A stretch of 64,000 bases of DNA from Candidatus Woesearchaeota archaeon (GCA_016188045.1 JACPIM010000002.1:17198-81197), one strand, 5' to 3'; positions 14,276 to 43,849 are shown, counted from the stretch's first letter. Made by a program: numbers and translations. Notes: generated by a model not told the origin, from the letters alone.

Positions 14276-15157
14276 ATGGTCTTAGAATCTTTATTGGGCC
14301 CAAAAAGAGCTGAGAGAAATCCAACAAGTCTTTTTTTGTTAGGTGTATTATATGCCTCAATAGCTTTATTTTTAGGATTATGGATTTTTAAAAATCAGGC
14401 AAGCCTAGTTTTAGTTTTCTTAACTGTTATGGCTGCAATTCCTTTGGTGTTTAGAACGAATATATTAGAAGAAAAAAGAGCAATGTATCTTAAAGGAGAA
14501 ATAAAACTATTAAGAGCACATTCAAGAGCATTACTTGCTTTTATTTTTTTATTCTTCGGATTTGTGATAGCGTTTTCAGCTTGGTATTTATTATTACCTG
14601 AACATCTGGTTCAATCAACATTTAATTCTCAGATAGAAACAATAAGAAGCATTAATGGAAATTTATTCGGAGCACCCATAGTAGCAAATTCTGCAATAGA
14701 CACAAATTTTGCGCAAAGCGGAGTTTTCCTGCAGATTTTTTCAAATAACATTAAAGTTCTGCTTTTTTGCATTTTTTTCTCATTCTTCTACGGAGCAGGC
14801 GCAATTTTTATTTTAACTTGGAATGCTTCTGTTATAGGGACTGCAATAGGCAATTACATTAGAACAAATCTTGCAACGATAGCAGTTGAAAGCGGATTTT
14901 CAAAAATAGGCAGTTATCTAAGCATTTATTCTTTAGGTCTATTTAGGTATGCAATTCATGGTATTCCAGAAATCTTAGCTTATTTCACAGCAGGCCTAGC
15001 TGGAGGAATAATTTCAGTCGCAATAATAAAGCATGATTTAGATTCAAAATACTTTAGAAAAATAATGCTTGATTCTTTGGACTTAATAATACTAGCGGTA
15101 CTTCTATTGTTTGCAGCAGCTTTATTAGAGGTATATATAACTCCTTTAATTTTCTAA
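14276..15157 (+). CDS. integral membrane protein (possibly SpoIIM/DUF95-like)
   Basis: 293 aa with about 6 TM helices. Family assignment is tentative. Confidence 0.4.
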   Translation: MVLESLLGPKRAERNPTSLFLLGVLYASIALFLGLWIFKNQASLVLVFLTVMAAIPLVFRTNILEEKRAMYLKGEIKLLRAHSRALLAFIFLFFGFVIAFSAWYLLLPEHLVQSTFNSQIETIRSINGNLFGAPIVANSAIDTNFAQSGVFLQIFSNNIKVLLFCIFFSFFYGAGAIFILTWNASVIGTAIGNYIRTNLATIAVESGFSKIGSYLSIYSLGLFRYAIHGIPEILAYFTAGLAGGIISVAIIKHDLDSKYFRKIMLDSLDLIILAVLLLFAAALLEVYITPLIF

Positions 15158-15191
15158 AAATTTATAAACCTGGCAATTTCAAAATTTACCA

Positions 15192-16196
15192 ATGGTATTC
15201 GCGTTTAAATTGCTGTATTTAAGTCCAATTATAAGTTTTATAGTTACTTTAATAGCCACACCAATATTAATAAGATATCTAAACAGAATAGGGCTTCAAG
15301 TAAAAGACCAAAATAAGGAGAATAAACCACTAGTCCCAATTTCTGGCGGATTAGCAGTTATATCTGGAATACTCGTAGGTTTAATGTTTTACATCTTTGT
15401 TTTAACTTTTGTTTATAATGATAAAACCCAATTTGGATTGATATTTGCATCTTTAACAACGATTTTACTAATAACTTTCATAGGTTTTATGGACGATTTA
15501 ATAATAAATAAAACAAAAGATTCTTCAGTAGGATTAAAACAATGGCAAAAACCATTCTTAACTATAATCGCGGCAGTTCCATTAGTAGTAATTAATGCCG
15601 GAGTATCAAAAATGGCAGTTCCATTTTTCGGGGTCATAGATTTTGGTCTATTATATCCATTACTATTGATTCCAATTGGCGTTGTTGGTGCTTCAAATAT
15701 GGTGAATTTACTAGCAGGAATTAACGGATTAGAAACAGGCATGGGCCTGGTTTATTTCTCAATGCTGGGGGTTTATTCTTACTATCATATAAGATTTGAA
15801 GCCGCGGCCATATCAATAATACTTGTTGGCGCATTAATTGCCTTCTATTATTTTAATAAATTTCCGGCAAAGATACTGCCGGGAGATTCATTAACATATC
15901 TTTTAGGAGCGGCTATTGCGGTAGTAGCAATAATAGGCAACATAGAAAGAGCAGCACTGATAGTATCTATTCCCTTTATATTCGAATTTTTGCTTAAAGC
16001 AAGAAGTAAATTCAAGGCACAAAGTTATGGCACTTACATTAACGGAAAAATACAGTCACTATATCCAAATAAGATTTATTCACTAATACATTTAATGACC
16101 ATAAAGCCAAAATTTACAGAAAAACAAATTACTTATGTCTTTATCATAATCATGCTAATAATTTCAAGTTTGATCTGGTTGATTCAAAATGTTTAA
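15192..16196 (+). CDS. UDP-GlcNAc:dolichyl-phosphate GlcNAc-1-phosphate transferase (AglH/Alg7/WecA-MraY superfamily)
   Basis: FIGFMDDLII (D-D-x-x-D) and NMVNLLAGINGLETG (the eukaryote/archaeal GPT version of NxxNxxDGxDGL), with about 10 TM helices. Confidence 0.85.
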   Translation: MVFAFKLLYLSPIISFIVTLIATPILIRYLNRIGLQVKDQNKENKPLVPISGGLAVISGILVGLMFYIFVLTFVYNDKTQFGLIFASLTTILLITFIGFMDDLIINKTKDSSVGLKQWQKPFLTIIAAVPLVVINAGVSKMAVPFFGVIDFGLLYPLLLIPIGVVGASNMVNLLAGINGLETGMGLVYFSMLGVYSYYHIRFEAAAISIILVGALIAFYYFNKFPAKILPGDSLTYLLGAAIAVVAIIGNIERAALIVSIPFIFEFLLKARSKFKAQSYGTYINGKIQSLYPNKIYSLIHLMTIKPKFTEKQITYVFIIIMLIISSLIWLIQNV

Positions 16197-17463
16197 AGAA
16201 TTTTTTAGTAGAAGGGATAGTTTAATTAGAGATAATTTCATACTAGTAACCGCGTCTATGTTTGGGAATGTAGCCGCTTTTTTGTTTCACGTTTTCATGG
16301 TCAGATTTCTAGGTTCAGTAGACTACGGAATACTCGGTGTTCTTTTATCTATAATCTACCTAATTAGCGTTCCGCTTTTAGTTATCCAAACAGTAATAGC
16401 AAAATTTATTTCTCAATATAAAGCAAAAGGAGAGCATAATAAGATTAATCTTCTATTAAGAAAGAGTTCATTTAAATTCGTAAAATATAGTGCAATCTTT
16501 CTCGCAATAAACATTTTATTAATTCCCGCTCTATCAAAATTTCTTCATATTCCAAAATTAAATTTCCTTGTCCTTTCACCAATAATATTTTTAGCAACAC
16601 TTATTCCAATAGGCAGAGGAGCATTACAAGGATTACAAGAATTCAAAGTATTAGGCTATAATGTAATTACAGAAGCATTCTTAAAACTAATTTTTGGAGT
16701 TTTACTAGTTGTTTTAGGCTTGGCAGTCAATGGAGCAATATTGGCAATAATTTTATCTTTTATATTTCCATTAATCTTGTTACATCATAAATTAAAAAAA
16801 TATCTAGAAACTAAAGAAAACACAAGCCTAAATATTAAAGAGATATACGCTGACTCATATGCAATCTTGCTTACATTAATAACATTAACCTTATTTTATA
16901 CAATTGACTTATTCTTAGTCAAACATTATTTTTCAGGTACAGAAGCCGGATTATATGCTACTGCCTCATTATTGGGTAAAATAATTTACTTCGCTTCTTT
17001 AGCCATAGTATTAGTAATGTTTCCAAAAACAACAGAACTTTTTACAGTAAACAAACCAAGTTCAACGATACTTATCAAGTCGTTAATTTTCATAATATTA
17101 ATAGCAATACCGGTTTTATTGGTTTATTTTTTACTGCCAGAATATGCCATTTTAATCTTAGGAGGAAAAGAATATTTGCCAATCTCTAATCTTTTGGGTT
17201 TTTTTGGTTTAGCAATGACTTTTTTCACTATATCTTACACTTTGGCCTTCTATAATCTGTCGATAAACAAAACTTCATTTATTTATGGTTTGGCTATATT
17301 AAATATAGTTGAAACTATTGCTATCTATTTGTTCCATTCTACTATAAAAGAAGTAGTAATCATTTTAAATATAATCACCTTAGTTTCTCTGTTATATCTG
17401 GGGGGGTATACTATAAAAAACATAAATGGTAAAGCTATCAATAATAATACCCGCACACAATGA
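16189..17463 (+). CDS. oligosaccharide/polysaccharide flippase (Wzx-like, MOP superfamily)
   Basis: 424 aa with 12-14 TM helices. The N-terminal region is typical of polysaccharide biosynthesis protein family members. Overlaps the AglH-like gene by 8 nt. Confidence 0.7.
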   Translation: MFKEFFSRRDSLIRDNFILVTASMFGNVAAFLFHVFMVRFLGSVDYGILGVLLSIIYLISVPLLVIQTVIAKFISQYKAKGEHNKINLLLRKSSFKFVKYSAIFLAINILLIPALSKFLHIPKLNFLVLSPIIFLATLIPIGRGALQGLQEFKVLGYNVITEAFLKLIFGVLLVVLGLAVNGAILAIILSFIFPLILLHHKLKKYLETKENTSLNIKEIYADSYAILLTLITLTLFYTIDLFLVKHYFSGTEAGLYATASLLGKIIYFASLAIVLVMFPKTTELFTVNKPSSTILIKSLIFIILIAIPVLLVYFLLPEYAILILGGKEYLPISNLLGFFGLAMTFFTISYTLAFYNLSINKTSFIYGLAILNIVETIAIYLFHSTIKEVVIILNIITLVSLLYLGGYTIKNINGKAINNNTRTQ

Positions 17464-18196
17464 AGAAAAAAGAATTAAAGAAACATTAATATCTTATACC
17501 AAATTTTTTAATTTAAAACTTAAGAACGATTATGAACTAATTGTTATTCCAAATGCATGTAAAGATAAAACTGTAGAACTCGTTAAAGAATTTTCAAAAA
17601 AACACAGCACACTAAAATACAAAGAATTAATCCCGGGAGGAAAGGGCCTGGCTTTAGTTGAAGGGTTTAAAATAGCTAAGGGCAATTTTATTGGTTTTAT
17701 TGATGCAGACAATAGCACAAGCTCAGATGAATTTCATAAACTAATGCAAATAATAAATGGTTATGACGGAGCAATAGCCTCAAGATGGATGAAAGAATCT
17801 ATCGTTGATGTAAAACAACCCGTTCTTAGATTGATTGCGGGAAGAGTATTTAACTTTATAGTTAGATTTTTATTAGGCATGAGATTCCAGGATACACAAT
17901 GTGGCGCGAAATTATTCAAAAATGAGGCAATTAAAAACATATACCCTAAATTAGGTATAACAAAATGGGCCTTTGATATTGATCTTATTTATTTAATGAA
18001 GCGCAATAACTATAAAATTAAAGAAATCCCAATTAGGTGGCGCGACACAATAGGTTCTCAATTAAACATACCAAGGGCTTCTTTTGAAATGTTCCTGGCT
18101 TTAATAAGGTTAAGATTAATATACTCACCATTTAGTTTTATAGTAAAAGCCTATGATCTATTGCCAGAATTTATAAAGATTCACCACAAACTATGA
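17426..18196 (+). CDS. GT2 glycosyltransferase (Dol-P-glucose/mannose transferase-like)
   Basis: LSIIIPAHNEEKRI, IDADNSTS (DxD) and QCGAKLF motifs. Confidence 0.8.
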   Translation: MVKLSIIIPAHNEEKRIKETLISYTKFFNLKLKNDYELIVIPNACKDKTVELVKEFSKKHSTLKYKELIPGGKGLALVEGFKIAKGNFIGFIDADNSTSSDEFHKLMQIINGYDGAIASRWMKESIVDVKQPVLRLIAGRVFNFIVRFLLGMRFQDTQCGAKLFKNEAIKNIYPKLGITKWAFDIDLIYLMKRNNYKIKEIPIRWRDTIGSQLNIPRASFEMFLALIRLRLIYSPFSFIVKAYDLLPEFIKIHHKL

Positions 18197-19998
18197 AAAA
18201 GTCAATACTAGATAGGATTTTGGATTTATTGTTTGATAAAGATAAGACTAAAATTTTACTCATATTGGCTTTAATTTTGGCTTTTTTATTAAGACTATGG
18301 GCTGCAGCAACAACACAACCATTTGCAGATGACTTAGTCTATGGCACTCATGCAATCAACTGGCTATCATCTGGTGCTACTAGCAACCAAAATCAAAGTC
18401 CGTTGTGGTTTGCATTAGCAGATATATTCTATAGAATATTCGGAGTTTCATTAATTTCCGGCAGGCTAACTTCAATAATCTTCGGTTCTTTAACAGTACT
18501 AATCACATTCCTAATAGCCAACTTAATTTTTAATAAAAAAGTAGCAATAATATCATCATTCTTGTTAGCAATATCATCATTCCACATAAAACACCAAGTT
18601 ATGGAAATGGATATGACTTTTGCTTTTTTTACATTATTTGCGGCATATCTATTTTTAGAGAAACTAAAAAATGAAAATAAGATCTCACTTCTTGCTTTTC
18701 TATTTCTAGGATTAGCAATATTATCAAAATCAATACCAATAACTACCATACCGGGTTTTATTTTGGCCTTCGTGCTGTATTATTTGTATAAAAAAGAAGA
18801 TAGAAAACAATTATTAAATAATCAAAACAAGAAGAACATTTTGTTAGGCTTAATAATATTATTTGTATTACTGCTTCCTTTAATTAGTTATAATTATTTA
18901 TTGTATAAAGAAAAAGGTTTGATAGATGTAATGTTCGCAAGATTTTTTGATGTTGGTATGGAAAACTTTGCTTCAATACAGGAAACTTTGCCGTCTTTTT
19001 CATTTGAAAGATTTTTTGAAGGATTAAAAACTACCATCTTTTATTTCTTTATAAAATTTGATTCAATAATATTTTTATTAGGGATAATAGGTTTTTTTAT
19101 TTCCTTTAGAAAAAAATATCCTTTTAATGTAATGTTTGTTTCAATATTCATCTTCACTTACATTTTTTTAACAGGTACTTCAGTTCTTTCAAATCATTAT
19201 GTATTCATGCCGCCAGTTTATGCCATCTTTGCTGCAATTCCTCTCTCATGGCTAACAAAAAAGATAAAATTAAAATATTTTTTGTCAATTATGGTATTGC
19301 TTATACTATTAATAAACCTCTACACAATTTCAGATTCAATTTTTAGCAAATCTCCAACAGGGCAATTAAGAAAATTTGCAAATTCCGAGATAGATGGTAA
19401 TTCTCTAGCAATAATGGATTCTAGAATATATATTGGATTAACTTCTTGGACTATGAATGACAAACATTACATAGATGCATCCTTATTGCCAACAATAATT
19501 GAAGAAACCAAGAAGTTAAACACAAAAGAAGAGCAAATAAACATCTTTTTTATTGAATGCGCGCCAGATAATTGCGGCGGTGTCAATGTAAATAAAAATT
19601 TAAATGAATCTATGGAGAATTTAATTTCGCAGTTTGGTAATCCGCTTAAGGTAATCTATGGTGGCGGAGGAGATGGAGATTCTGCAATACCTTATTTTAA
19701 GATTTATCAGGCAACCTTATCACAAAAACCCCAAATATTGAACTTTGTAGACCAAACACATATGTTTTTTTTCTATCCAGTAAGATGGGCTTTAAAAGAT
19801 CAGATCTATGATAGTTATACTCCTAAAGGCGTAATAGATAATTCAATAGACTTAACAGCACATTTAATACTATATTTGACTATTATGCTCTCCTTATTCT
19901 CGCCTATGTTTTTAACATATAAGGTATACGAAACATTTAAAAAATCCAATCAAAGTGAAAGCACTAATGAAGACAACAGTAATAATTCCGGTTTTTAA
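18193..19998 (+). CDS. GT-C membrane glycosyltransferase (ArnT/PMT, GT39/GT83-like)
   Basis: 601 aa with about 11 N-terminal TM helices, an acidic FADDLVYG motif in the first loop and a C-terminal soluble domain. No WWDYG motif, so it is not called AglB. Confidence 0.6.
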   Translation: MKKSILDRILDLLFDKDKTKILLILALILAFLLRLWAAATTQPFADDLVYGTHAINWLSSGATSNQNQSPLWFALADIFYRIFGVSLISGRLTSIIFGSLTVLITFLIANLIFNKKVAIISSFLLAISSFHIKHQVMEMDMTFAFFTLFAAYLFLEKLKNENKISLLAFLFLGLAILSKSIPITTIPGFILAFVLYYLYKKEDRKQLLNNQNKKNILLGLIILFVLLLPLISYNYLLYKEKGLIDVMFARFFDVGMENFASIQETLPSFSFERFFEGLKTTIFYFFIKFDSIIFLLGIIGFFISFRKKYPFNVMFVSIFIFTYIFLTGTSVLSNHYVFMPPVYAIFAAIPLSWLTKKIKLKYFLSIMVLLILLINLYTISDSIFSKSPTGQLRKFANSEIDGNSLAIMDSRIYIGLTSWTMNDKHYIDASLLPTIIEETKKLNTKEEQINIFFIECAPDNCGGVNVNKNLNESMENLISQFGNPLKVIYGGGGDGDSAIPYFKIYQATLSQKPQILNFVDQTHMFFFYPVRWALKDQIYDSYTPKGVIDNSIDLTAHLILYLTIMLSLFSPMFLTYKVYETFKKSNQSESTNEDNSNNSGF

Positions 19999-20650
19999 TG
20001 AAGAGAAAACAATTAAACAAATTTTAACTAAGGTTTTGGCTTCAAAAATAGAAAAAGACATAATTGTGGTCGATGATTGTTCAACAGATAGGTCTAGAAA
20101 GATTCTTAAGAAATATGCAGATGAGAATATCATAACTTTATTATTGCACGATAAAAATCAAGGAAAAGGAGCGGCAATTAGAACAGGTTTAAAGGGAGCA
20201 GATAGCGACATAATCCTAATACAGGATGCTGATTTGGAATATGATCCAGAAGATTATCCAAAACTTATAAAACCAATTTTAGAAGAAAAAACACATGTAG
20301 TTTATGGAACAAGAATGCATTCTCTATCAAATAGAGATATGCATACTTTGCACTTTTTTGGAAATAAGCTGCTAACTTTCACTACCAATTTGTTGTTTGG
20401 TTCTAAAATATCAGATATGGAAACCTGTTATAAGGTGTTTAGGTCAGACGTAATCAAAGATATGAAACTAAGGGCAAGAAGATTTGATTTTGAGCCAGAA
20501 ATAACAGCAAAAATATTAAAAAAAGGGTATAATATACATGAGATTCCAATAAAATTTACACCCAGATCATTTAAAGAAGGAAAAAAAATAACTTGGAGAG
20601 ATGGCGTAAAAGCAACTTATTATCTTTTCAAATATAGGTTTGTAAATTAA
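19955..20650 (+). CDS. GT2 glycosyltransferase (dolichol-phosphate mannosyltransferase-like, soluble)
   Basis: VIIPVFNEEKTI, VDDCSTDRS and IQDADLEYDPED motifs. Confidence 0.8.
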   Translation: MKALMKTTVIIPVFNEEKTIKQILTKVLASKIEKDIIVVDDCSTDRSRKILKKYADENIITLLLHDKNQGKGAAIRTGLKGADSDIILIQDADLEYDPEDYPKLIKPILEEKTHVVYGTRMHSLSNRDMHTLHFFGNKLLTFTTNLLFGSKISDMETCYKVFRSDVIKDMKLRARRFDFEPEITAKILKKGYNIHEIPIKFTPRSFKEGKKITWRDGVKATYYLFKYRFVN

Positions 20651-21322
20651 ATGGATAAATGGACAGGATTAAGCAGAACAGCAGAAAGCATAAGAAATCC
20701 AAAAATAACTAGCAATATCTATCTTCATTTTTCTACTCTATCAGAAGATATTAAGAAGTATTCTCATCTGGCATCAGGAATTTTATTGGATATTGGCTCT
20801 GGTACCTCACCATATAAGCCTTTTTTTCACCATGTAAAAAAATATATCACTTTGGATTTTTTTTATAATAAGCAAAAACCAGATATAATCGCAGATGCTT
20901 TAAAATTGCCGATTAAAAGTGATTCAATAAGTACAGTTTTATGTACTCAAGTACTAGAACATATACCTTATCCGCAGATATTAGTTGATGAAATATATAG
21001 AATTCTAAAAAAAGACGGTATTTGTATATTAACAACACATATGGCAACTCCTTTGCACGGCCTGCCTCATGATTACTTCAGATTTACAAATATGGGCTTA
21101 AAAAATGTGATATTTAAAAATTTTAGAGAGGCATTTATTAAAGAAAACGGCGGTTCTTTGTTGGCAATATTTCAATATATAAACTGGTCCGTAAGTTCAA
21201 GATTACCAAGATTTTTATCTTTGCCATTAATAATTTTAATTAACTTAATGATAAAACCACTAGATAAATTATTCCACGATACCAATCTTACAATAAATTA
21301 TATAGTTGTAGCAAAAAAATAA
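20651..21322 (+). CDS. class I SAM-dependent methyltransferase
   Basis: LLDIGSGTSPY (motif I) and LCTQVLEHIPYP. Confidence 0.7.
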   Translation: MDKWTGLSRTAESIRNPKITSNIYLHFSTLSEDIKKYSHLASGILLDIGSGTSPYKPFFHHVKKYITLDFFYNKQKPDIIADALKLPIKSDSISTVLCTQVLEHIPYPQILVDEIYRILKKDGICILTTHMATPLHGLPHDYFRFTNMGLKNVIFKNFREAFIKENGGSLLAIFQYINWSVSSRLPRFLSLPLIILINLMIKPLDKLFHDTNLTINYIVVAKK

Positions 21323-21355
21323 TATTATCTATTTTAAAGTAGTAACAAAATAGAA

Positions 21356-21370
21356 ATATTTATAAATAAG
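21356..21370 (+). promoter_or_regulatory. archaeal TATA-box-like element (atatttataaataag) about 27 nt upstream of the ATG, implying a leaderless transcript
   Basis: AT-rich TATA-like octamer centred about 26-27 nt before ATG 21389. A similar arrangement (aactatataaacaaa) lies ahead of ATG 14276. Confidence 0.35.
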
Positions 21371-21388
21371 CTAACTATACGAAAATTC

Positions 21389-22129: not shown

Positions 22130-22358
22130 TGGCGAAGCCACCGAAAATTTTTTAGTAAATTTTATTAACAAGTAGTCTTATTATTTTTTCTGTCTTAGTG
22201 AAGCATAAATCTTATAATTCCAATTTGGAAAGGTTTTTGTTTTACTAGGGCTGCATGTCAATTTACTAGTGCATGGACGATTGAGTCTAAATGCCATGAA
22301 ATTCAGAAATTCCTTACGAGGGATTTTGGTGATTAATCGGTAAATTGGCTACACAATT

Positions 22359-22444
22359 GGTCCGCGCTTAATGACGACAACGGCAACAGGCTTAACCTTA
22401 ACGGCAACTACCATGATAACAACAGGAACGGTTGTGCTTCCGGA
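22359..22444 (+). repeat. DGR-like template repeat (TR), AAC-codon rich, non-coding
   Basis: In the VR reading frame it reads ..DDNGNRLNLNGNYHDNNRNGCASG, with 7 AAC codons in 19. Every AAC except two is replaced in the VR by G/T changes at the A positions. No ORF of the VR frame continues through it. Confidence 0.55.
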
Positions 22445-34467: not shown

Positions 34468-34468
34468 A

Positions 34469-35882: not shown

Positions 35883-37142
35883 TTAAGGTAAAATTTCAAT
35901 TTTCGGTAGTGGCATAATAAATTTACCACCCTTCTCAATAAAATCTTTCTCTTTGCTTAATATTTCGTCTTTGTAAGTATATGCTAGGATCAAGGCACAA
36001 TCTGGATATTTTTCTTTCATCTTATCAGGGTGGAATATCTCAATATGTTTACCAGGTATTACTCTGCCATATCTCTCAGGTGATACATCAACAACATAAT
36101 CTAATATTTCTTTTCCGATATCACAATAGTTTAATAAGATAATGCTACTTCCGGGAGCCCCATATCCAATAATCCTTTTGCCTTGTTTTTTTAAGTTCCT
36201 CAATAAACCAATTAACTCAATTTTATTTTTATTTATCAAATCACCAAAAGTTATATAGCTCTTTTCGTCAAGTATTCCTGTTTTATTTTCTAATTCTAAT
36301 AATTCTTTTACTTTTTTACTTATACTTTCATTTTTTCCTTTATTTCTTACAAATACCCTAATAGACCCAGAATGTATAGGTATCCTATCAACATCAAATA
36401 TTTCAATTCCAAATCGGTTCATTAAATGTGATAAGGCATGTAATGAATAGTAGCATAGATGTTCATGATACATAGTGTCATATTTTGTATTTTCTAAAAG
36501 GTCTATTATATACTGAACTTCAAAAATATAAACGCCATCTTCTTTAAGCAAAATCTTTATCCCATCCATAACTTCATCTAAATTATCTATGTGTGCAAAA
36601 ACATTATTTGCAATAATTAAATCCGCTTTTCCATATTTATTGACAATTTCTTTTGCTACTTTTTTTGTAAAATAATCCATTATTATGTTTAATCCTTTGG
36701 ATCTAGCAATTTTAGAAACATTTTCAGAAGGATCAACACCAATAGCACTAATTCTTAAGTCACTAAGTGGTTTTAATAAAACCCCATCATTAGATCCAAT
36801 TTCAACAACAAAACCATCTTTATTTTTCAAAAATCTCTCTTTATAATAAGTTGCTGCTTTTCTAAAATGTTCAGAAAGAGTTTTAGTCGAAGATGATAAG
36901 TATCTATAATCTTTAAATAACATATCTGGAGGTATGACATCTAAAACCTGAACTAATGAACATTTTTTGCAAAAATAAACATTTAAAGGATATTTTTTTT
37001 CACTAGGAATATCTTCTTTTTTCAAAAATCCTCCTGCTAAGGGCATATTTCCAAGACTGAGAAATTTAACTACAGAATTACTTTTACAAATTCTACAAGT
37101 CTTTATTTTTTTCATAGCCGCAGTATTTTCTAAAATTATCAA
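35883..37142 (-). CDS. NDP-hexose C-methyltransferase (TylC3/NovU-like: zinc-binding N-domain + class I MTase + C-methyltransferase C-domain)
   Basis: N-terminal CRICKS..CKKCSLVQ zinc ribbon, VVEIGSNDG motif I and a C-terminal C-MTase-like domain. The true start is possibly the internal MKKIKTCRIC at about 37115. Confidence 0.65.
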   Translation of the reverse strand: MIILENTAAMKKIKTCRICKSNSVVKFLSLGNMPLAGGFLKKEDIPSEKKYPLNVYFCKKCSLVQVLDVIPPDMLFKDYRYLSSSTKTLSEHFRKAATYYKERFLKNKDGFVVEIGSNDGVLLKPLSDLRISAIGVDPSENVSKIARSKGLNIIMDYFTKKVAKEIVNKYGKADLIIANNVFAHIDNLDEVMDGIKILLKEDGVYIFEVQYIIDLLENTKYDTMYHEHLCYYSLHALSHLMNRFGIEIFDVDRIPIHSGSIRVFVRNKGKNESISKKVKELLELENKTGILDEKSYITFGDLINKNKIELIGLLRNLKKQGKRIIGYGAPGSSIILLNYCDIGKEILDYVVDVSPERYGRVIPGKHIEIFHPDKMKEKYPDCALILAYTYKDEILSKEKDFIEKGGKFIMPLPKIEILP

Positions 37143-37219
37143 TATTAATAAATATTATCAATAATGTTTAATTTTTAAAGAAAAGGTTTATAAATATTAT
37201 GTAGCATAAATCTTCTGTA

Positions 37220-38311
37220 ATGGTAAAGATCTCTGGCTATATTACTAATCTTAATGTTCTAAAAAAAGGGGTAGACTACTTTTTTAAGTTTATGTTCAGC
37301 CCAAATTCAACTATGAAAAGGAAAATCAATCTTCTTTCCGCCTTAATACAATGGAAAGTACTAGAGAGAGATAGATTAACCAGCTATCCCATAAAAGTAA
37401 ACATAGATCCAGGAAACGTATGTAATCTGCATTGTAAGGCCTGCCCGACAGGTATTGGTTTAGAAGGCAGAGCAAAAGGTTTAATGAATTGGAAAACCTA
37501 CAAAAAAATAATAGATGAAATAGGGGATTACTTGTTTGAAGTTGATTTATACAGTTGGGGAGAGCCTTTTTTACATAGGCAGATTTTTGATATGGTGGAC
37601 TATGCTAATCAAAAAAAAATAACTACCATAATCAGCTCTAATTTTATGGTGTTTAATGATGAAATCTGCGAGAAGATAATTAAGTCACAATTAAGTTTAT
37701 TGATAGTTTCCCTGCATGGGGGAAGTCAGGAATCAATAGACTCATATCAAGTAGGTACCGATTTCAATAAAGTAGTAAATAACATGAGAAAAATAGTAGA
37801 AATGAAAAAGAAATTAAATAGCGACAAGCCATTTGTCCAATGGAGAATGGTTGTTACCAAATATAATGAACACGAAATAGAAAAAGTACAGAAAATGGCC
37901 AAGGAACTTGGAGTAAACAGGCTGGAATTGGCCCCATATAGATGTGATATGGCCACTGAGGTTTTGATGAATAATGAAAGACAATTTGAAACTGCCAAAA
38001 CCTTTTTGCCTAAAGACGAAGGTTACTCTATGTATAATTATTCCAATAAGGAAAAGAAAAATATAAAGAATGATGATTGTATCTGGTTGTTTATGCAAGC
38101 AGCAGTAAACTGGAATGGTTCTGTTTCGCCATGTTGTGCCATATGGCATGAAAAATTTGATTTTGGAAATGTGAATGAACTTCCATTTAAAGAAGTATGG
38201 AATAATGAGAAGTATGTGGCAGCAAGAAGACTTAATAAAAAAAATTATAAACCAGACCCAAAACTGGGTTTAGTATGTGCAACTTGTTATAAAAATCAAG
38301 CTCAAATCTAG
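37220..38311 (+). CDS. radical SAM enzyme with C-terminal SPASM/twitch Cys cluster
   Basis: VNIDPGNVCNLHCKACP (C-x3-C-x2-C) and a C-terminal CIWLFMQAAVNWNGSVSPCCAIW...CATC auxiliary cluster. Confidence 0.75.
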   Translation: MVKISGYITNLNVLKKGVDYFFKFMFSPNSTMKRKINLLSALIQWKVLERDRLTSYPIKVNIDPGNVCNLHCKACPTGIGLEGRAKGLMNWKTYKKIIDEIGDYLFEVDLYSWGEPFLHRQIFDMVDYANQKKITTIISSNFMVFNDEICEKIIKSQLSLLIVSLHGGSQESIDSYQVGTDFNKVVNNMRKIVEMKKKLNSDKPFVQWRMVVTKYNEHEIEKVQKMAKELGVNRLELAPYRCDMATEVLMNNERQFETAKTFLPKDEGYSMYNYSNKEKKNIKNDDCIWLFMQAAVNWNGSVSPCCAIWHEKFDFGNVNELPFKEVWNNEKYVAARRLNKKNYKPDPKLGLVCATCYKNQAQI

Positions 38312-39411
38312 ATTCCAGTATACAAGTTTAGAAGTTTTTCTCCAATAACATCTTCTCTAAATTGTTTGGCAAATTCTTGTGCATTTTTTATAACAGAATC
38401 ATTACTTTTATAATTATTTAATAATTTTCTTAATTCATTATGATCATTTATTTCAAACAAATAGCCATTTTCACCATTTTTTATTAATTCTTTTCCACCA
38501 TCAGTTTTAGAACCCATTACAATTAAACCAGCAGCCATAGCCTCAATTAATACCTGTGGCATGGCTTCTCTTAAGCTAGGCAAAACTAAAACATCATGTT
38601 CATTGAATAATTTAATCTTATCTTCCTTTTTAAAAATCGGACCAATAAACCTTATTCTATGGCTAGCACCATAAGACACAATAAGTTTTCTTAATTTATT
38701 GTAATATTCTTCATCATAAGGTCCAACAAGATCTACCTTTATATTTTCAAGTTCACTAACCGCATTAATCAAACAGTCTATATTTTTTATAGGGCTAATC
38801 CTGCCTAAAAATAAAATTCTTGGAACTTCTCTCTGTGACCATTGTCTTTCTATAAACAATTCACCTGGAATGCTATTCGGCATATAAACAATTTTATCCT
38901 TGCTTACTCCAAGATCAAACAAACAAGGTTCTTCCCATTTAGTTATAGTAATTATTTTTTTAAAATTATTTAATTCTTTTTTATATCTTAGATCATATGT
39001 TGCTGCTAAGATACTCAGAATATTGCCTCTAATTTCTCTACTAACAAAGGGGGCATGTGTTGTTAAAAAACAAGGTTTATTTGATTTCTGAGCGTATTTT
39101 AATGCAAAATGCGTACAAGGATGTCTATAAACATGTGCGTGAACTACATCAGGATTTAGTTTAAAAAATTCTTTTTTAAATTTCCAAACTAAAACATTTT
39201 CACTTAACCTAGTAGCATTAAACCTGTGTATCTTAATTCCTTCATATTCCTCATAGTTAGATGATTTCTCATTAGTTCCTTTTATAATGTTGCTAGAAAA
39301 AACACGAACTTCATTTCCCTTGCTAATTAAGTACCTGGCGTCATTATAAACTCTGTTCCAAACGCCACATACACTAGGGTAAGAAAAATCAGTTACTAAA
39401 AGTATTTTCAT
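38308..39411 (-). CDS. GT4 glycosyltransferase (GT-B)
   Basis: MKILLVTDFSYPSVCGVWNRV N-terminus and a LPSLREAMPQVLIEAMAAG E-x7-E motif. Confidence 0.8.
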   Translation of the reverse strand: MKILLVTDFSYPSVCGVWNRVYNDARYLISKGNEVRVFSSNIIKGTNEKSSNYEEYEGIKIHRFNATRLSENVLVWKFKKEFFKLNPDVVHAHVYRHPCTHFALKYAQKSNKPCFLTTHAPFVSREIRGNILSILAATYDLRYKKELNNFKKIITITKWEEPCLFDLGVSKDKIVYMPNSIPGELFIERQWSQREVPRILFLGRISPIKNIDCLINAVSELENIKVDLVGPYDEEYYNKLRKLIVSYGASHRIRFIGPIFKKEDKIKLFNEHDVLVLPSLREAMPQVLIEAMAAGLIVMGSKTDGGKELIKNGENGYLFEINDHNELRKLLNNYKSNDSVIKNAQEFAKQFREDVIGEKLLNLYTGI

Positions 39412-39776
39412 TTTTTAGGTTGTTTAGCTTGATTATCTATTAAATCTCTATATGGCTCGTAATATTTACATTGAAATTTACCATCCCACCATTCTAGCAT
39501 AACAGTATCAGTTATTGATCGGAATAAATGTGGCGTTTCAGGTGGTATAGAAATAAAATCATTTGGACCCTTTCTTATTATAACATCTTTATCATCTTGT
39601 CTTAATGTTATTTCCATTTCCCCACTTAATATCGCATCATATTGAGTATTAGGATGATAATCTCCGCTTCTTAATACACCGGCTTTAGTAACAAGAACAT
39701 TAAATTTTACACCACCAATGTCTAATCTATGTATCTCCCCTCTATGATCCTTATAAACCGGTTCATCTAATCCCAT
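39408..39776 (-). CDS. cupin-fold protein, RmlC/FdtA-like putative NDP-sugar epimerase/isomerase
   Basis: 122 aa with DHRGEIHRL and cupin beta-strand periodicity. 4-nt overlap with the GT4 gene. Confidence 0.45.
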   Translation of the reverse strand: MGLDEPVYKDHRGEIHRLDIGGVKFNVLVTKAGVLRSGDYHPNTQYDAILSGEMEITLRQDDKDVIIRKGPNDFISIPPETPHLFRSITDTVMLEWWDGKFQCKYYEPYRDLIDNQAKQPKK

Positions 39777-39788
39777 TATAACCCCCCA

Positions 39789-40559
39789 TCAAATGTTCTC
39801 TAGTTTTACAAACTCACTTCTTTCAGATATGAAGTAGAGTATCTTATCTAACTTATTTAAAAATCTATCTAATTTACATATTTTATAAGTTAAACTATCA
39901 TTAATCTCTATAAAGTCCCATGAATGACAATAAAAAACAATAACTTTTCTTCTTTTCAATAATAAAAATAAAAACTTCATTAAAAACAAAGGCAATATCC
40001 TTAAAGAATATCCAACAAAAGGAATAACTAAAGCAGAAGTTGGAATTTCTAAAACTCCATTTTTTTTATAAGGATTACTTTTAGAAAAAAACTGCCTTAA
40101 AAAACCAAATATGCTTTTATTAGATCCTCTAATCAAATGAACTAGTTGTAAAATATCTTTGGAAGCATTTGATGAATCATACTTAAATCCATTTTCTTTC
40201 AATAATTTAAAAGTATTTTCATCAATACTATGTTGCGGTGCCCTAAAACCATTAACTTTTAATCCATATTTTCTAAAAATTTTTAAACCTTTTTTTATAT
40301 CGTTATTCTTTTCTTCATTATCCATCTTGTCAAATCTTTTATGATCATAAGAATGAAATCCTACTTCCCATCTATTATTTTGTAATCTCTTAAATATCTC
40401 ACCATATTTTTCAATAACCTCTCCGGTAACAAACAAAGTAGGTTTAATTTTGTATTTTTCAACTATTTTCTCAAAAATTTTTAATCCTTCAGTAACACCC
40501 AAATAATCTCCGCTATGTAAATCTCTCTCAACATCAACAGATATATTAACAAAAGTCAT
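39789..40559 (-). CDS. polysaccharide deacetylase (CE4/NodB family)
   Basis: VDVERD (Asp motif) and GFHSYDHKRF (H-S/T-x-x-H) motifs. Confidence 0.55.
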   Translation of the reverse strand: MTFVNISVDVERDLHSGDYLGVTEGLKIFEKIVEKYKIKPTLFVTGEVIEKYGEIFKRLQNNRWEVGFHSYDHKRFDKMDNEEKNNDIKKGLKIFRKYGLKVNGFRAPQHSIDENTFKLLKENGFKYDSSNASKDILQLVHLIRGSNKSIFGFLRQFFSKSNPYKKNGVLEIPTSALVIPFVGYSLRILPLFLMKFLFLLLKRRKVIVFYCHSWDFIEINDSLTYKICKLDRFLNKLDKILYFISERSEFVKLENI

Positions 40560-41251
40560 TTCTCAGCAATAAAATGTAAAAAAAATCCGAAATATTTTCC
40601 TTTAATTTTATTTAATTTATTATCCATATAATTAAAAATATTAGCAACCCTTAAATGTGGCGATATAAAATACTTAGAATTCTTGAATCCAGCCATATGC
40701 AAAAGTTTTCTAAATTCCATTGGAGTAAAAGATTTCTCATACCCAATATCCCATTTTCCAATCAGCATTTTAAATCTTTTAGTTAAATGAAAAAAAGATA
40801 GTTTATTTGGAACTGTTAAATATATCTTACCGTTTTTTTTCAAAACCCTATAAATCTCTCTTAACACTTGTTCAGTTTCAGGAACATGCTCTACTGTGCC
40901 TAAAGAAAATATTTTATCAAAACTTTCATTTTGAAAAGGCATTTTTCTCATGTCTCCCAGCTTTATATCTAGCTCTTTTGACAATTTCTTCTTAATGGCA
41001 GTCTCAGATATTTCAATTCCAGTACATTTTACATCTTTAATTTTTCTTCTAATATCTTCTAAATGCGCTCCAGGGCCAGCACCAATATCCAACACAACAT
41101 CCTCTTTCTTTATATCCAAAATATTCATTATAAAAGAAGCATCGCTAACAGTTTCACCAAAATAATGTGTTTTCCTTTCAGAATAGTATTTTTCCCAAGC
41201 GTTTACCATTTCTCCAAGACCACTGAAACTTTTTTTGCGATAATATCCCAA
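40556..41251 (-). CDS. class I SAM-dependent methyltransferase
   Basis: VLDIGAGPGAH (motif I) and IFSLGTVEHVP. Confidence 0.7.
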   Translation of the reverse strand: MGYYRKKSFSGLGEMVNAWEKYYSERKTHYFGETVSDASFIMNILDIKKEDVVLDIGAGPGAHLEDIRRKIKDVKCTGIEISETAIKKKLSKELDIKLGDMRKMPFQNESFDKIFSLGTVEHVPETEQVLREIYRVLKKNGKIYLTVPNKLSFFHLTKRFKMLIGKWDIGYEKSFTPMEFRKLLHMAGFKNSKYFISPHLRVANIFNYMDNKLNKIKGKYFGFFLHFIAEK

Positions 41252-42243
41252 TCATATTCTTTGGCTTTATTTTTACCGTTCATACCTATAAAATTAGCAA
41301 AATTCTCATCATTAACTAATTTTAATAATTTTTTTCCAAGTTCATTGTAACTTCCAGGTTCAAATAATAAAAGATCTTCTTTATCAGAAAAAATATTCCT
41401 CATCCCATTTAGATTAGAAGAAATAACCGGTCTTCCAGAAGCCAATCCTTCTAACAAAGCCGGCCAAGGCAAGGCCTCCCATAATGAAGGATAAACTAAA
41501 ATATATGAAGACACAAGTTCTTGAAATAATTCTTTTCTATCTAAGATAAATCCCCTCCAAAGAATCTTGCTATCAGAAAACTCATTCATAAGTTCTTTTG
41601 CATAATCATTAATATTCCCGATTATCTCTAGCCTAAAATTAGGAATTTTATCTTTTATTTCATAAAATGCTTTAAGTAAATAGATTATTCCTTTTTGTTC
41701 ATGTATCCTACCAACAAAAGTTATCTTATTACTAACTCTAACTTTTATTTCTTTGTAAATTTTAGTATCAACGCCATTTGGTATGTAAGTCATATTATTA
41801 AACTCCTTTTTCAAAATTTCTCTATCAGCTAAACTGACAACTATAATCTTATCTGAGAATTTTAGAAAATTCTTGAATATAAACCATAAAAACTTATTAT
41901 CATAAAACTTGAATCCTTTAATTCCATGTATAGTTGCAACAGTTTTAAATTTAATTTTAAAAATTGGTAAAAATAAAAACAGGTAATTCTCATGTATATG
42001 CACCACTTTGAATTTAGATAAAAAGATCCTAGGAATTTTTAAAAAAATACTAATAAAAAAAAACAAGCTCTTTAAATAACTAATTTTAGTTTTAATTAAA
42101 TTAATTTCAATCTTATCCTCGCATAAACTCCATCTTTGGGTTAAAACAGTTACATTTTTTAATCTAGAAGAAACCTCAAATATATGCCTTTCACTCCCTC
42201 CTTCTAACGGAGGAGTCAATCCAATCATTAATGTTTTAAGCAT
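41203..42243 (-). CDS. GT4 glycosyltransferase (GT-B)
   Basis: EALPWPALLEGLASGRPVI E-x7-E motif. Start moved to ATG 42243 (MLKTLMIG) because the table start at 42273 is a GTG. Confidence 0.75.
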   Translation of the reverse strand: MLKTLMIGLTPPLEGGSERHIFEVSSRLKNVTVLTQRWSLCEDKIEINLIKTKISYLKSLFFFISIFLKIPRIFLSKFKVVHIHENYLFLFLPIFKIKFKTVATIHGIKGFKFYDNKFLWFIFKNFLKFSDKIIVVSLADREILKKEFNNMTYIPNGVDTKIYKEIKVRVSNKITFVGRIHEQKGIIYLLKAFYEIKDKIPNFRLEIIGNINDYAKELMNEFSDSKILWRGFILDRKELFQELVSSYILVYPSLWEALPWPALLEGLASGRPVISSNLNGMRNIFSDKEDLLLFEPGSYNELGKKLLKLVNDENFANFIGMNGKNKAKEYDWDIIAKKVSVVLEKW

Positions 42244-42258
42244 TTTTCTTTCCTTATT

Positions 42259-42290
42259 TTGGGGTCTTAGCACTTTTTAAAAGGGCTAAT
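42259..42290. repeat. palindromic motif copy B (ttttggggtcttagcactttttaaaagggctaat)
   Basis: About 26/31 identity to copy A, with a 10-bp stem carrying one mismatch. It overlaps the 5' end and start region of the GT4 gene 41203..42243. Confidence 0.5.
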
Positions 42291-42415
42291 AAAGAAACCT
42301 ATAAAAAACTACCGTTAATAAGGATTTACTACCGCAGCGAACACCATTTAAAGATAAAGTTTATTAATATTAAAATCAAAATCATTAAAAACAGGAGTTT
42401 TGTTAAAATTTTAAA

Positions 42416-43849
42416 ATGAGATTTAAAAGAGTTATGTTTGTAATACCTGCACAACAATTTTACTATCCAGACTTCCCGCAAGCAGGAATCGGCTACTTGT
42501 CAGAACTTCTATTAAAACACAGTATAGATAATTCTGTTATTGATATGCGTCTAGGCTACACCATAGAACAAGCACTAGAAAAAATAAAGAAATTTAATCC
42601 AGACTTGGTTTGCGTATCTTTAACAACGTATAACAGAGATATTGGATATGAAGTAGTTAATAAATTAAAGGAAAATAATTACGTTGTGTTTGCCGGTGGT
42701 CCTCATGTTTCAACTTTAAAAACAGCAGTTCTAAAAGAATGTAAGGCAAATTTTGCAGTAAAGTTAGAAGGAGAATATCCATTGTTAGAATTATGCCAGG
42801 GTAAAGAGCTAAGCGAAATAAAAAACCTAATTTTCAGAAACGGCAATGAAATAATTGAAAATGAAAACAGGCCGTTTATTTATAATTTGGATGAACTCCC
42901 CTTCCCCAAATATGAGAAATTTGAGTTTGATAAATATAAAAACTCAAGTATTTCTTTAGTAACATCTCGTGGTTGCCCATATCAATGCACCTTTTGTTCA
43001 GTAAGATTTGCATCAGGCATGCCTTTCAGGGCGAGATCACCAGAACATGTCTTAGAAGAAATAAAGTATTGGCACGATAAAGGTTTCAAATATTTCCACA
43101 TAATAGATGATAATTTCACTTTGCATAAAAGCAGAGTTAAAGCGATTTCAGATAAAATAATAGAATCAGGATTAAAAATTACTATTGCCTGTGATGGTGT
43201 TAGAGCAGATATGGTAGATAGGGAAGTATTAACTTCAATGAAGCAGGCAGGATTCAAATATGTTTCATTTGGAGTTGAAGGTGGAAATAATAAAATTATG
43301 AAAGCAATTAAAAAGGGAGAAACAATAGAACAAATTGAAGAAGCGATTAAACTTTCAACAGAACTTGGCTTTGATGTGTTCTTATTTTTCCAAGTGGGTT
43401 CTCAATCAGAAACTTTGGAGGATGTAAAGGATTCAATAAACTTAGCATTAAAATATCCAATAGTTGGAGCAAACTTTTATAACGTTGTTCCTTACCCAGG
43501 AACAGAACTGTTTGATTATGTAAAGAAAAATAATTTATTCATAATACAACCAGAAGAGTATATTAAAGAAATTCCTTATTTTGGAGATGATCCTGTTTTT
43601 GAAACTCCAGAATTTCCAGTAGAGGAAAGAAGACAAGCCTTGAAAATGGCTAGAGCAGCAGCAACAAAAATAAAAAGAAAGGCATTAAAAAGAAGACTTC
43701 AAAAATTAGGAACTTTTGGAAACTTTGCTTATCTATTTTTAAGATACGAATTTGTAAAAGAAAAAGTTGTAAATCAAACTTTGATGAAATCTGGTTTTTT
43801 AAGAAAAATAATCTCACCCCAAATATCAAAAATGTTTATAGAGAACTAA
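42416..43849 (+). CDS. B12-binding-domain radical SAM protein (class B radical SAM methyltransferase-like)
   Basis: N-terminal B12-binding-like domain (VMFVIPAQQ..., VCVSLTTYN) and SRGCPYQCTFCS (C-x3-C-x2-C). Confidence 0.8.
   Translation: MRFKRVMFVIPAQQFYYPDFPQAGIGYLSELLLKHSIDNSVIDMRLGYTIEQALEKIKKFNPDLVCVSLTTYNRDIGYEVVNKLKENNYVVFAGGPHVSTLKTAVLKECKANFAVKLEGEYPLLELCQGKELSEIKNLIFRNGNEIIENENRPFIYNLDELPFPKYEKFEFDKYKNSSISLVTSRGCPYQCTFCSVRFASGMPFRARSPEHVLEEIKYWHDKGFKYFHIIDDNFTLHKSRVKAISDKIIESGLKITIACDGVRADMVDREVLTSMKQAGFKYVSFGVEGGNNKIMKAIKKGETIEQIEEAIKLSTELGFDVFLFFQVGSQSETLEDVKDSINLALKYPIVGANFYNVVPYPGTELFDYVKKNNLFIIQPEEYIKEIPYFGDDPVFETPEFPVEERRQALKMARAAATKIKRKALKRRLQKLGTFGNFAYLFLRYEFVKEKVVNQTLMKSGFLRKIISPQISKMFIEN

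Follow-up and report, generated by a model that had tools for sequence, protein, structure and literature searches.

The 64,000-nucleotide stretch of Candidatus Woesearchaeota archaeon DNA analysed here (GCA_016188045.1, JACPIM010000002.1:17198-81197; referred to as the window) probably carries the main surface-glycan assembly locus, which comprises about 37 kb in three pieces (5312-10361, 14276-43849 and 51534-54479) that are interrupted by housekeeping and mobile DNA. In the largest of these, 14276-43849, 26 of the 31 genes belong to glycan-building or sugar-tailoring families by Pfam and NCBIfam, including five glycosyltransferases (GTs) of family GT2, three of GT4 and two GT-C enzymes of the PMT_2 type. 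The island is a prokaryotic surface-glycan cluster of a kind already known, and what is new is the recurrence of radical S-adenosylmethionine (SAM) genes, here at 37220 and 42416, a GT-C family that is invisible to Pfam, a NUDT22-like enzyme and the setting in DPANN archaea. These archaea live attached to host cells, their surface is the host interface, and no described glycan pathway for DPANN was found in the literature searched.

Pfam was searched with all window open reading frames (ORFs) of 100 aa or longer, and NCBIfam with key ORFs; genes are named here by their first coordinate. The loci compared are labelled L001-L023, where L002 and L015 are from Woesearchaeota relatives and L003 is a further relative. 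The window has a G+C content of about 30% and no tRNA genes. Within a single project (SRR121134xx), several runs yield short Logan contigs that encode proteins identical to those of the window. The genes that would initiate, extend and export the glycan are the following.

15192-16196, plus strand: initiating phosphotransferase (GPT) of the Alg7/AglH/WecA type (PF00953, 120 bits)
16189-17463, plus strand: MOP/Wzx-like flippase (Pfam)
17426-21322, plus strand: GT2 17426, GT-C 18193 (PMT_2), ArnC/DPMS-like GT2 19955 and class I methyltransferase 20651 (Pfam)
22516-23115, minus strand: class I methyltransferase (Pfam), with GT2 23171 in the 88-93% identity range in L002
23171-24118, plus strand: GT2 with a C-terminal transmembrane (TM) helix (Pfam), end of the conserved core
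24122-29007, minus strand: run of FCS zinc finger 24122, HprK-like 24370, GT4 25404, GT-C 26576 and GT2 28096
8988-10361, plus strand: predicted third GT-C (hhalign, AF2, Foldseek)

The GPT at 15192 has human DPAGT1 as its best relative in the PDB (9e-15), ahead of MraY (2e-12), and together with the neighbouring flippase (15192-17463) it is 79-93% identical in L002 and L003. These are the one initiating phosphotransferase and the one flippase in the entire window, and both had been named in the initial annotation, as an Alg7/AglH-like GPT and a Wzx flippase. Downstream, GT2 19955 abuts GT-C 18193 and has ArnC (5e-17), the dolichol-phosphate mannose synthase (DPMS) of Pyrococcus (5e-15) and GtrB as its best PDB relatives, and by these similarities 17426-21322 fits a putative module of polyprenyl-phosphate-sugar synthase and GT-C. 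The same pairing is seen at GT-C 26576, which abuts GT2 28096, while GT-C 8988 and GT2 5312 are two genes apart. GT-Cs 18193 and 26576 match PMT_2 at 63-65 bits, and all three GT-Cs share an acidic first loop, D-x-x-D/E-Y, with the motifs ADDLVY, YDESDY and TDVGDY, while the oligosaccharyltransferase motif WWDxG occurs in none of the three.

The third of these enzymes, ORF 8988, has no Pfam or NCBIfam match. At least seven TM helices are predicted for it, with TDVGDY as the first-loop motif, and its relatives number 16 in 5.8 billion proteins, those with a source name being Woesearchaeota. When compared by hhalign with PMT_2 proteins it gives a probability of 95.9% (E 6e-9), with TDVGDY aligned to the ADDLVY loop, and its AF2 model (pLDDT 85.9) has GT-C enzymes as all of its top 26 Foldseek matches in the PDB, ArnT first (TMq 0.62). 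Because of this profile comparison and the predicted fold, ORF 8988 is assigned as a predicted third GT-C, which bears out the "possible" GT-C of the initial annotation and its total of three. A Wzy/EpsG-type polymerase was also considered for ORF 8988, since one distant homologue carries PF14897, but was rejected in view of the GT-C result of both comparisons. The "about ten" GT2/GT4 enzymes counted earlier are reached only across all three pieces, as 14276-43849 holds eight, GT2 5312 makes nine and GT2 51906 makes ten.

A second set of genes would supply and modify the sugars.

29130-29861, plus strand: short RmlA-like sugar-1-phosphate nucleotidyltransferase (Pfam, 181 bits; TIGR01207, 239 against a cutoff of 361)
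29858-32567, minus strand: GT2 29858, NUDT22-like 30878 and DUF218 31935 (Pfam)
32606-35882, plus strand: nucleotide-sugar run of methyltransferase 32606, 4,6-dehydratase 33406, RmlD-like 34469 and PIG-L 35196
35883-37142, minus strand: NDP-hexose 3-C-methyltransferase of the TylC3/TcaB9/KijD1/MtmC family (Methyltransf_13, Methyltransf_23 and Methyltransf_14 above cutoff)
37220-38311, plus strand: radical SAM enzyme with a one-cluster Twitch/BtrN-like C-terminal domain (Pfam SPASM, 55.8 bits)
38308-42273, minus strand: conserved module of GT4 38308, cupin 39408 (a cassette gene), CE4 39789, class I methyltransferase 40556 and GT4 41203
42416-43849, plus strand: class B radical SAM enzyme with a B12-binding domain (PF02310, 45 bits; PF04055, 108 bits)

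In the nucleotide-sugar run, whose gene order is the same in L015 and L023, the dehydratase 33406 matches PF02719 at 337 bits and scores below the NCBIfam cutoffs of PseB (370 against 408) and FnlA (282 against 730). Its PDB relatives come in the order FlaA1/PseB (1.7e-83), an FnlA-like enzyme and CapE, and from these comparisons its predicted subfamily is clear, namely the PseB/FnlA/CapE-type inverting UDP-GlcNAc 4,6-dehydratases. RmlD-like 34469 is a short 4-reductase and PIG-L 35196 a de-N-acetylase (Pfam, NCBIfam). The adjoining 35883 aligns over its full length (about 400 residues) to MtmC, KijD1 and TcaB9 (1e-83 to 1e-89) and keeps the zinc motif CxxC...CxxC, the AHI histidine and YxEH; the conserved Tyr, Glu and His have catalytic roles in TcaB9. 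In L015, the slot of 35883 is occupied by a DegT aminotransferase. The RmlA-like gene 29130 is likewise a cassette gene, with a GC of 0.367 and no counterpart in L015.

NUDT22 is a UDP-glucose/galactose hydrolase, and the gene named after it here (30878-31987, minus strand) belongs to a family with 13 representatives in 1.84 billion proteins. The protein has a two-domain NUDIX fold with invariant residues that resemble the NUDIX box, its AF2 model (pLDDT 86.5) gives a structural match to human NUDT22 (E 4e-13), and it may be a UDP-sugar hydrolase. Together with the C-methyltransferase and the cupin it is present in L023, a 91% relative, and absent from L015, and L023 also has the PIG-L of the window type, which is only 33% identical to that of L015; the position of the RmlA-like gene is not covered by the L023 contig.

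Most of the tailoring genes listed in the initial annotation are recovered by these searches: the TylC3-like C-methyltransferase by its full-length alignment, and the dehydratase, RmlD-like reductase, PIG-L, CE4, RmlA and cupin by Pfam, the last of these barely at its cutoff. The six class I methyltransferases it had counted are too many, as four stand alone in 14276-43849 and five with 8183, the C-methyltransferase being extra. Overall, the profile searches and gene neighbourhoods support its reading of a lipid-linked, methylated glycan with deoxy and amino sugars, including the C-methyl and radical SAM modifications that it had considered possible.

Two radical SAM enzymes set this island apart. 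SPASM/Twitch enzymes are mostly peptide or cofactor maturases. Across 34 members of the 37220 family, the conserved cysteines are C68/C72/C75 together with C287, C305, C306, C353 and C356 only, which gives the auxiliary pattern C-x12-G-x4-CC ... CxxC, and the seven-cysteine SPASM motif (CX9-15GX4C ... CX2CX5CX3C ... C) is not found in these 34 members. By this pattern, the cysteines are predicted to suffice for one auxiliary cluster of the Twitch type, as in BtrN, and not for a full SPASM domain; of the earlier label "SPASM radical SAM", the radical SAM assignment and the Pfam SPASM match stand, while the cysteines fit a one-cluster Twitch domain only. The best solved match is the auxiliary domain of BtrN (3e-10). 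The NCBIfam scores of 37220 all fall below the equivalog cutoffs (for example, 126 against 380), so that it counts as an orthologue of no curated family, and its own family is large and unnamed, with more than 500 matches.

The second enzyme, 42416, was correctly called a B12-binding radical SAM protein in the initial annotation, both of its domains being matched in Pfam. It is transcribed divergently from the GT4-methyltransferase-CE4-GT4 module and carries the core motif CPYQCTFC, whose C187/C191/C194 are invariant in 29 homologues. HpnJ is its best NCBIfam match (177 against a cutoff of 578) and the B12 methylase MgmA (9CCB) its best structure, and AprD4, a relative with matching domain organisation, is named in NCBIfam as a non-methylating diol dehydratase. 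More than 2000 proteins of about 475-495 aa make up its unnamed family, whose members are found in glycan clusters of DPANN, Patescibacteria, Omnitrophica, Nitrospiraceae and others. By analogy, 42416 may carry out GenK-type C-methylation or HpnJ-type rearrangement of a de-acetylated amino sugar, both of which have precedent as known B12 radical SAM chemistries (PMC9204698).

The association of these genes with glycan enzymes extends beyond the window. In all six of the contexts inspected in detail, which cover both families and come from Woesearchaeota, Patescibacteria, Nitrospiraceae and other bacteria, the radical SAM homologues lie inside GT-rich clusters. In L015, a tight same-strand run of methyltransferase, 4,6-dehydratase, RmlD-like reductase, PIG-L and DegT is followed by the Twitch radical SAM gene. 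A bacterial homologue of 37220 (L017) lies with GT9, GT4, MBOAT and Wzm/Wzt genes, and two patescibacterial contexts (L018 and L019) hold Wzx, GT2 genes and a methyltransferase in addition to a B12 radical SAM gene. In L020, the GT4-methyltransferase-CE4-GT4 module faces the B12 gene as it does in the window, at 42-59% identity, and a second B12 gene, a dehydratase and a SPASM-type gene form one run. Another context (L021; GCA_012974965.1, JABAOF010011894.1, 1-21434) has six B12-radical-SAM-like genes in 21 kb, interleaved with GT2, GT4, DegT, GFO/MocA, hexapeptide acetyltransferase and PMT-like genes, with a GFO/MocA and DegT pair adjoining one of the B12 homologues, and stands as an extreme among glycan clusters rich in radical SAM genes; the Nitrospiraceae context (L022) is a NeuB/capsule cluster with two tandem B12 genes.

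In a wider sample, a Pfam scan was made of 78 immediate neighbours of SPASM-family genes at 47 metagenome loci; it was used in place of tblastn with window proteins against 55 loci, which is insensitive to divergent GTs and left half of the loci blank. Among these neighbours were 9 radical SAM genes, 7 GT4, 7 methyltransferases, 3 GT9, 3 carbamoyltransferases and 2 GT2, and by tblastn a B12 homologue lies within 5 kb of the SPASM-family gene in 9 of 55 loci. This sample is consistent with an enrichment in glycan genes, not with exclusivity. Taken together, we tentatively suggest, with distinctly less than even confidence, that 37220 and 42416 represent two large families of glycan-tailoring radical enzymes that install modifications not known in prokaryotic surface glycans. 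Under the same reservation, these modifications might include methylation of unactivated sugar carbons, NAD-independent oxidation, deamination, epimerisation and HpnJ-like ring contraction, and their setting, equally tentatively, might be the envelopes of ultra-small organisms of DPANN and the candidate phyla radiation (CPR) and of many anaerobic bacteria. No relevant literature was found on radical SAM enzymes in DPANN, archaeal or CPR glycan clusters, and in a 2024 review on archaeal N-glycosylation the word "radical" does not occur.

The two genes could instead be bystanders, serving RNA or cofactor modification or, with the HprK-like and AsnB-like proteins, the maturation of a ribosomal peptide. 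Their top NCBIfam matches are indeed to peptide or cofactor maturase families, HprK-like 24370 resembles the HprK-related kinase A and ScmC of peptide-modification cassettes, the AsnB protein has a sub-threshold match to lasso-peptide cyclases, and some of the wider SPASM-type family to which 37220 belongs has non-glycan neighbours. All of these NCBIfam scores are nevertheless far under cutoff (126 against 380 and 177 against 578), no precursor-peptide or PqqD-like gene was seen, and the AsnB protein passes the generic model and lies at least 16 kb from the HprK-like gene and both radical SAM genes. Gene order with glycan enzymes is moreover kept from 80% down to about 45% identity and across domains of life, and in L015 the Twitch-type gene belongs to one tight same-strand nucleotide-sugar run; we consider the bystander explanation very unlikely. 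Reassignment of the radical SAM genes to RNA-modification or cofactor families was rejected, as NCBIfam gives sub-threshold superfamily matches only. The initial annotation had proposed such a reassignment, of radical SAM and methyltransferase genes alike, as the finding that would overturn its reading; neither set was reassigned, and no NCBIfam equivalog cutoff was reached.

Similarity to enzymes of antibiotic biosynthesis raises another explanation, in which the half of the island at about 29-44 kb would produce, instead of a surface glycan, a soluble small molecule that bears sugars, for instance an antibiotic of the aminoglycoside-like or nucleoside-sugar kind. BtrN and BlsE are among the nearest solved relatives of 37220, AprD4 is among those of 42416, and C-methylation of aminoglycoside sugars by B12 radical SAM enzymes is established (PMC9204698). 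Other members of an aminoglycoside-type tailoring toolkit would be the GT4 enzymes and the PIG-L, DegT and GFO/MocA genes found in the window or in L015 and L021. These similarities are at the level of superfamilies, far below equivalog cutoffs, and no cyclitol synthase, carrier protein, resistance gene or typical exporter is present. The genes are also interleaved with membrane-anchored GT2, GT-C, Wzx flippase and polyprenyl-phosphate transferase genes, and homologous contexts hold Wzx, Wzm/Wzt, GT9, capsule-synthesis and NeuB genes, which makes a soluble antibiotic highly improbable as the product.

The extent of the island, which we continue to read as a surface-glycan locus, was traced in its relatives, and this brings in the remaining elements.

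5312-8923, minus strand: upstream tailoring block of GT2 5312-6250, AsnB-type amidotransferase 6251-8170 and class I methyltransferase 8183-8923 (Pfam, NCBIfam)
14276-15157, plus strand: SpoIIM-family polytopic membrane protein (PF01944, 61.7 bits), first gene of the conserved core
21389-22443, plus strand: diversity-generating retroelement (DGR) cassette, not a glycan gene, with target ORF 21389-22129, variable repeat (VR) 22033-22116, RT-16 RNA 22193-22357 and template repeat (TR) 22360-22443
43850-51533, plus strand: mobile insertion of 7.7 kb with a type IIG restriction-modification (R-M) enzyme 44184-46955, ORF 47284, an IS240-type DDE transposase 48983-50185 and ORF 50798
51534-54479: continuation of the neighbourhood, with pterin-binding DUF4346 51534, GT2 51906, AlaE-family membrane protein 52882 and GFO/IDH/MocA 53460

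L002 has the genes of the core, 14276-24118, in collinear order and with 74-96% identity, a higher level than that of the flanking e2b2, HAD and RuBisCO genes (76-88%). The upstream block 5312-8923, whose GT2 5312 has predicted C-terminal TM helices and whose AsnB 6251 passes the generic asparagine-synthase model of NCBIfam, is collinear in L003 at 75-83%. In L015, 28096-43849 is collinear at 62-80%, with one PIG-L gene at only 33%, and when 51534-55115 is included the overall range is 62-91%. In this relative, the stop codon of the B12 gene leads directly into the pterin-binding gene with no spacer, and the homologues of 51534-54479 are contiguous with the B12 gene at 70-80% identity. Because L015 joins the B12 gene straight to the homologues of 51534-55115, 43850-51533 is an insertion and the island runs on to 54479. 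A repeat search of 43.7-51.7 kb found one imperfect 59-nt inverted pair (43868-43926/50753-50811; 73% complementary), which is not conclusive as transposon ends, and among the ORFs without assignment in the insertion and its flanks PADLOC recognised the type IIG enzyme alone.

On the left, the minus-strand genes at 10694-14201 encode a form III RuBisCO, a Cys-rich signal-peptide protein (11990), a HAD hydrolase and an e2b2/IF-2B-family protein. This looks like an AMP-salvage block that separates the upstream glycan genes from the rest; no AMP phosphorylase was seen in the window. The "contiguous ~30 kb" of the initial annotation is therefore to be modified, as the DGR cassette lies inside it, the AMP-salvage block splits off the upstream part and the right edge at 43849 is the edge of the mobile insertion.

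Variation between relatives is concentrated in small groups of genes. The window has the C-methyltransferase, RmlA-like, NUDT22-like and cupin genes where L015 has DegT, whereas the GT4-methyltransferase-CE4-GT4 module is kept beside the B12 gene in L015 at 65-79% and in L020 at 42-57%, and the genes that differ are the island's highest-GC genes. By these comparisons, the island is a conserved scaffold diversified by small cassette exchange, and the variability between strains for which the initial annotation had proposed a check takes the form of swapped cassettes and not of wholesale replacement.

The DGR cassette fills the gap between island genes at 21323-22515, and its target ORF has a GC of 0.375. 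The RT-16 RNA lies between VR and TR (Rfam, 54.1 bits), the VR occupies 84 nt at the 3' end of ORF 21389, and of the 18 differences between VR and TR, 15 coincide with an adenine of the TR (P about 4e-6), all in codon position 1 or 2, with the TR being rich in Asn codons. The window contains no reverse transcriptase, and L002 does not have the cassette. A complete DGR is found at 1-1717 of L015 in the same order of VR, RT-16 (72.9 bits), TR and reverse transcriptase, directly beside the GT2 28096 homologue; there, 14 of 17 mismatches are at A, and the reverse transcriptase, which is split into two ORFs, carries LGNLTSQFFANVYL and YVDDF. From its repeats and RNA, the window cassette has the predicted signature of a DGR, and it connects the RT-16 motif with DGRs; in the work that first described the RT motifs, RT-10 alone had been linked to a DGR (PMC5737381). 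It was also observed that contigs of independent assemblies break at features of the island, L001 in the SpoIIM gene, L003 at the 19955 homologue, L013 in the DGR VR and L015 in the DGR target gene, which may reflect population heterogeneity there.

The same comparisons bear on whether the locus serves one product. Two or more independent glycan pathways may be present, with 14276-24118 as an N-glycosylation-like core and 24122-43849 plus 51534-54479 as a separately evolving tailoring or exopolysaccharide locus, the two having in common no more than a cell-surface neighbourhood on the chromosome. The roughly 11 strand switches and the three separate GT-C and GT2 pairs are in line with such a division, as is conservation, the first part being 74-96% identical in L002 and the second 62-80% in L015 with cassette swaps. 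Contigs of relatives also terminate between the two parts, L003 beginning with the homologue of 19955 and L015 stopping at that of 28096, and the DGR cassette and the R-M/transposase block are inserted between modules. Against this, the window has a single initiating phosphotransferase and a single flippase, the second part is without its own initiating enzyme or exporter, and the parts are adjacent in every assembly of the window population. We regard a division into separate pathways as a serious possibility, somewhat short of evenly balanced, and functionally it is compatible with the reading of the locus as the main surface-glycan assembly locus.

Under that reading, a route can be proposed from the gene families assigned above; its sequence of steps, its substrates and its acceptor are our suggestions. 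The Alg7/AglH-like 15192 would place an N-acetylhexosamine (HexNAc)-1-phosphate on polyprenyl or dolichyl phosphate at the cytoplasmic face, and soluble or peripheral GT2 and GT4 enzymes would lengthen the chain from nucleotide sugars. Among these sugars, 33406 would turn UDP-GlcNAc into a 4-keto-6-deoxy-HexNAc, which would undergo TcaB9-type C-3-methylation and then RmlD-like reduction. The RmlA-like, NUDT22-like and cupin genes would travel with the C-methyltransferase as one species-specific cassette, and in L015 the DegT in the slot would give a 4-amino sugar; more speculatively, the NUDT22-like and RmlA-like proteins might swap UDP for dTDP on behalf of the TcaB9-type enzyme. PIG-L and CE4 would strip N-acetyl groups, and four or five class I methyltransferases would add methyl groups (O- or N-linked). 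By analogy with BtrN and DesII, 37220 would take a hydrogen from a sugar carbon, leading to dehydrogenation, deamination or epimerisation, while 42416 would act with the GT4-methyltransferase-CE4-GT4 module in a GenK-like C-methylation or an HpnJ-like rearrangement of a de-acetylated amino sugar. The Wzx-like flippase would then send the lipid-linked glycan out, and outside the membrane the three ArnT/PMT-like GT-Cs would add sugars from polyprenyl-phosphate sugars, each lying a few genes from an ArnC/DPMS-like GT2. Transfer to protein would require an AglB encoded elsewhere.

Several observations weigh against the proposed locus and route. No window ORF of at least 100 aa has a Pfam match to STT3/AglB, and because AglB is not in the window the acceptor is left unassigned among protein, lipid and polymer; no Wzy polymerase or Wzz family match was found in the window either, while a MOP protein of the Wzx-like kind is encoded. 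As DPANN archaea are believed to obtain their lipids by scavenging, the carrier lipid is uncertain. TcaB9-type enzymes normally take dTDP-sugars, while the sole dehydratase appears to be specific for UDP-GlcNAc and the window contains no RmlB. The cupin is a marginal call (27.8 bits against a Pfam cutoff of 27.2), the roughly 11 strand blocks of the island might serve several products, and the SPASM-family neighbours span 69 Pfam families, including CoA-transferases, and are not exclusively glycan-linked. That a small genome devotes such a share to this island, as the initial annotation remarked, is something we infer.

Other genes of the island and its surroundings are as follows. The SpoIIM-family gene adjoins e2b2 in L002-L007 and also adjoins the GPT in L002, L003, L006 and L007; the SpoIIM/e2b2 pairing is kept in distant Nanoarchaeota, where L006 and L007 also have the GPT. 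The e2b2 protein has relatives at 80% and 76% identity in two other Woesearchaeota metagenome-assembled genomes (MAGs) and at 46-52% in Nanoarchaeota/Woesearchaeota MAGs, with a partial match of 58% in Pacearchaeota. Genes of the minus-strand run 24122-29007 overlap by 4 nt, and HprK-like 24370, which has a P-loop and the motif PAKSGVGKTS...LADDW, lies with 24122 at the downstream (3') end of its GT4/GT-C/GT2 genes. The FCS-type zinc-finger protein 24122 (83 aa) overlaps the start of this HPr-kinase-like gene (24122-25407, minus strand). PDB sequence searches with 24370, 39408 and 21389 gave no significant match. In the continuation of the neighbourhood, the GFO/IDH/MocA oxidoreductase 53460 is probably a nucleotide-sugar dehydrogenase.

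Upstream of the island, 2738-4953 (minus strand) contains five tandem paralogous small ORFs of 132-156 aa with no family match, each with a hydrophobic helix near the N terminus (about residues 7-25) and two conserved Cys residues that form a pair in the sequence pattern. They are kept in L003, adjoining the GT2/AsnB/methyltransferase block, and may be secreted or anchored surface proteins; identity as type IV pilins was considered and not adopted, as no K/R-G/A cleavage motif precedes the hydrophobic helix. At 1324-2741 (plus strand), a RimK-type ATP-grasp ligase and a retropepsin-like aspartyl protease form a pair in a RimB-like arrangement, and 59310-60887 (plus strand) encodes a MutS domain V-only protein of 525 aa.

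The locus provides a concrete parts list for a DPANN surface glycan that is conserved across species, and one in which diversification is visible, with tailoring cassettes swapped and with DGR and R-M/transposase elements inserted in the same neighbourhood. That two uncharacterised radical SAM families recur in the glycan clusters of DPANN, Patescibacteria and other bacteria suggests a radical carbohydrate chemistry yet to be explored, for which the nucleotide-sugar run and the radical SAM genes offer a compact target for heterologous reconstitution.

Among known systems, the closest in overall content are the archaeal agl clusters (Haloferax volcanii and Methanococcus, with AglH/Alg7 in Sulfolobus and methanogens), which are like the window in having a DPAGT1/Alg7-like GPT, a Wzx/AglR-like flippase, clustered GT2 and GT4 enzymes, methyltransferases, nucleotide-sugar enzymes and an amidotransferase. 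The window differs from these in that AglB/STT3 is not present, in its two radical SAM genes and sugar C-methyltransferase, and in belonging to a DPANN lineage. The ArnC/ArnT, DPMS/PMT and GtrB/GtrC modules share with the window the pairing of a GT2 with a GT-C, the acidic first loop and the ArnT-like fold, whereas the TM helices of ArnC and GtrB are lacking in GT2 19955. In the antibiotic pathways of actinomycetes, TcaB9, TylC3, KijD1 and MtmC have the same three-domain architecture as 35883, which is found here in an archaeal glycan island and adjoins a UDP-GlcNAc-type dehydratase instead of RmlB.

For the radical SAM enzymes, comparisons can be made with BtrN, the Twitch dehydrogenase of butirosin, which is like 37220 in its CxxxCxxC core, its single auxiliary-cluster pattern and its carbohydrate-tailoring neighbours, while 37220 is about 100 residues longer and the similarity is detectable in the auxiliary domain only. 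DesII is known to act after DesI, and in L015 the Twitch gene comes directly after DegT, as DesII comes after DesI in pathway logic. In the HpnI-HpnK-HpnJ series, where HpnI and HpnK are generally known as the glycosyltransferase and the deacetylase, the steps are paralleled by the window triad of GT, deacetylase and B12 radical SAM enzyme. GenK and GenD1, which carry out C-methylation, and HpnJ, which carries out ring contraction of a de-acetylated glucosamine (PMC9204698), share the B12-binding and radical SAM layout of 42416, which as compared to GenK and HpnJ forms a separate family, with scores far below the equivalog cutoffs.

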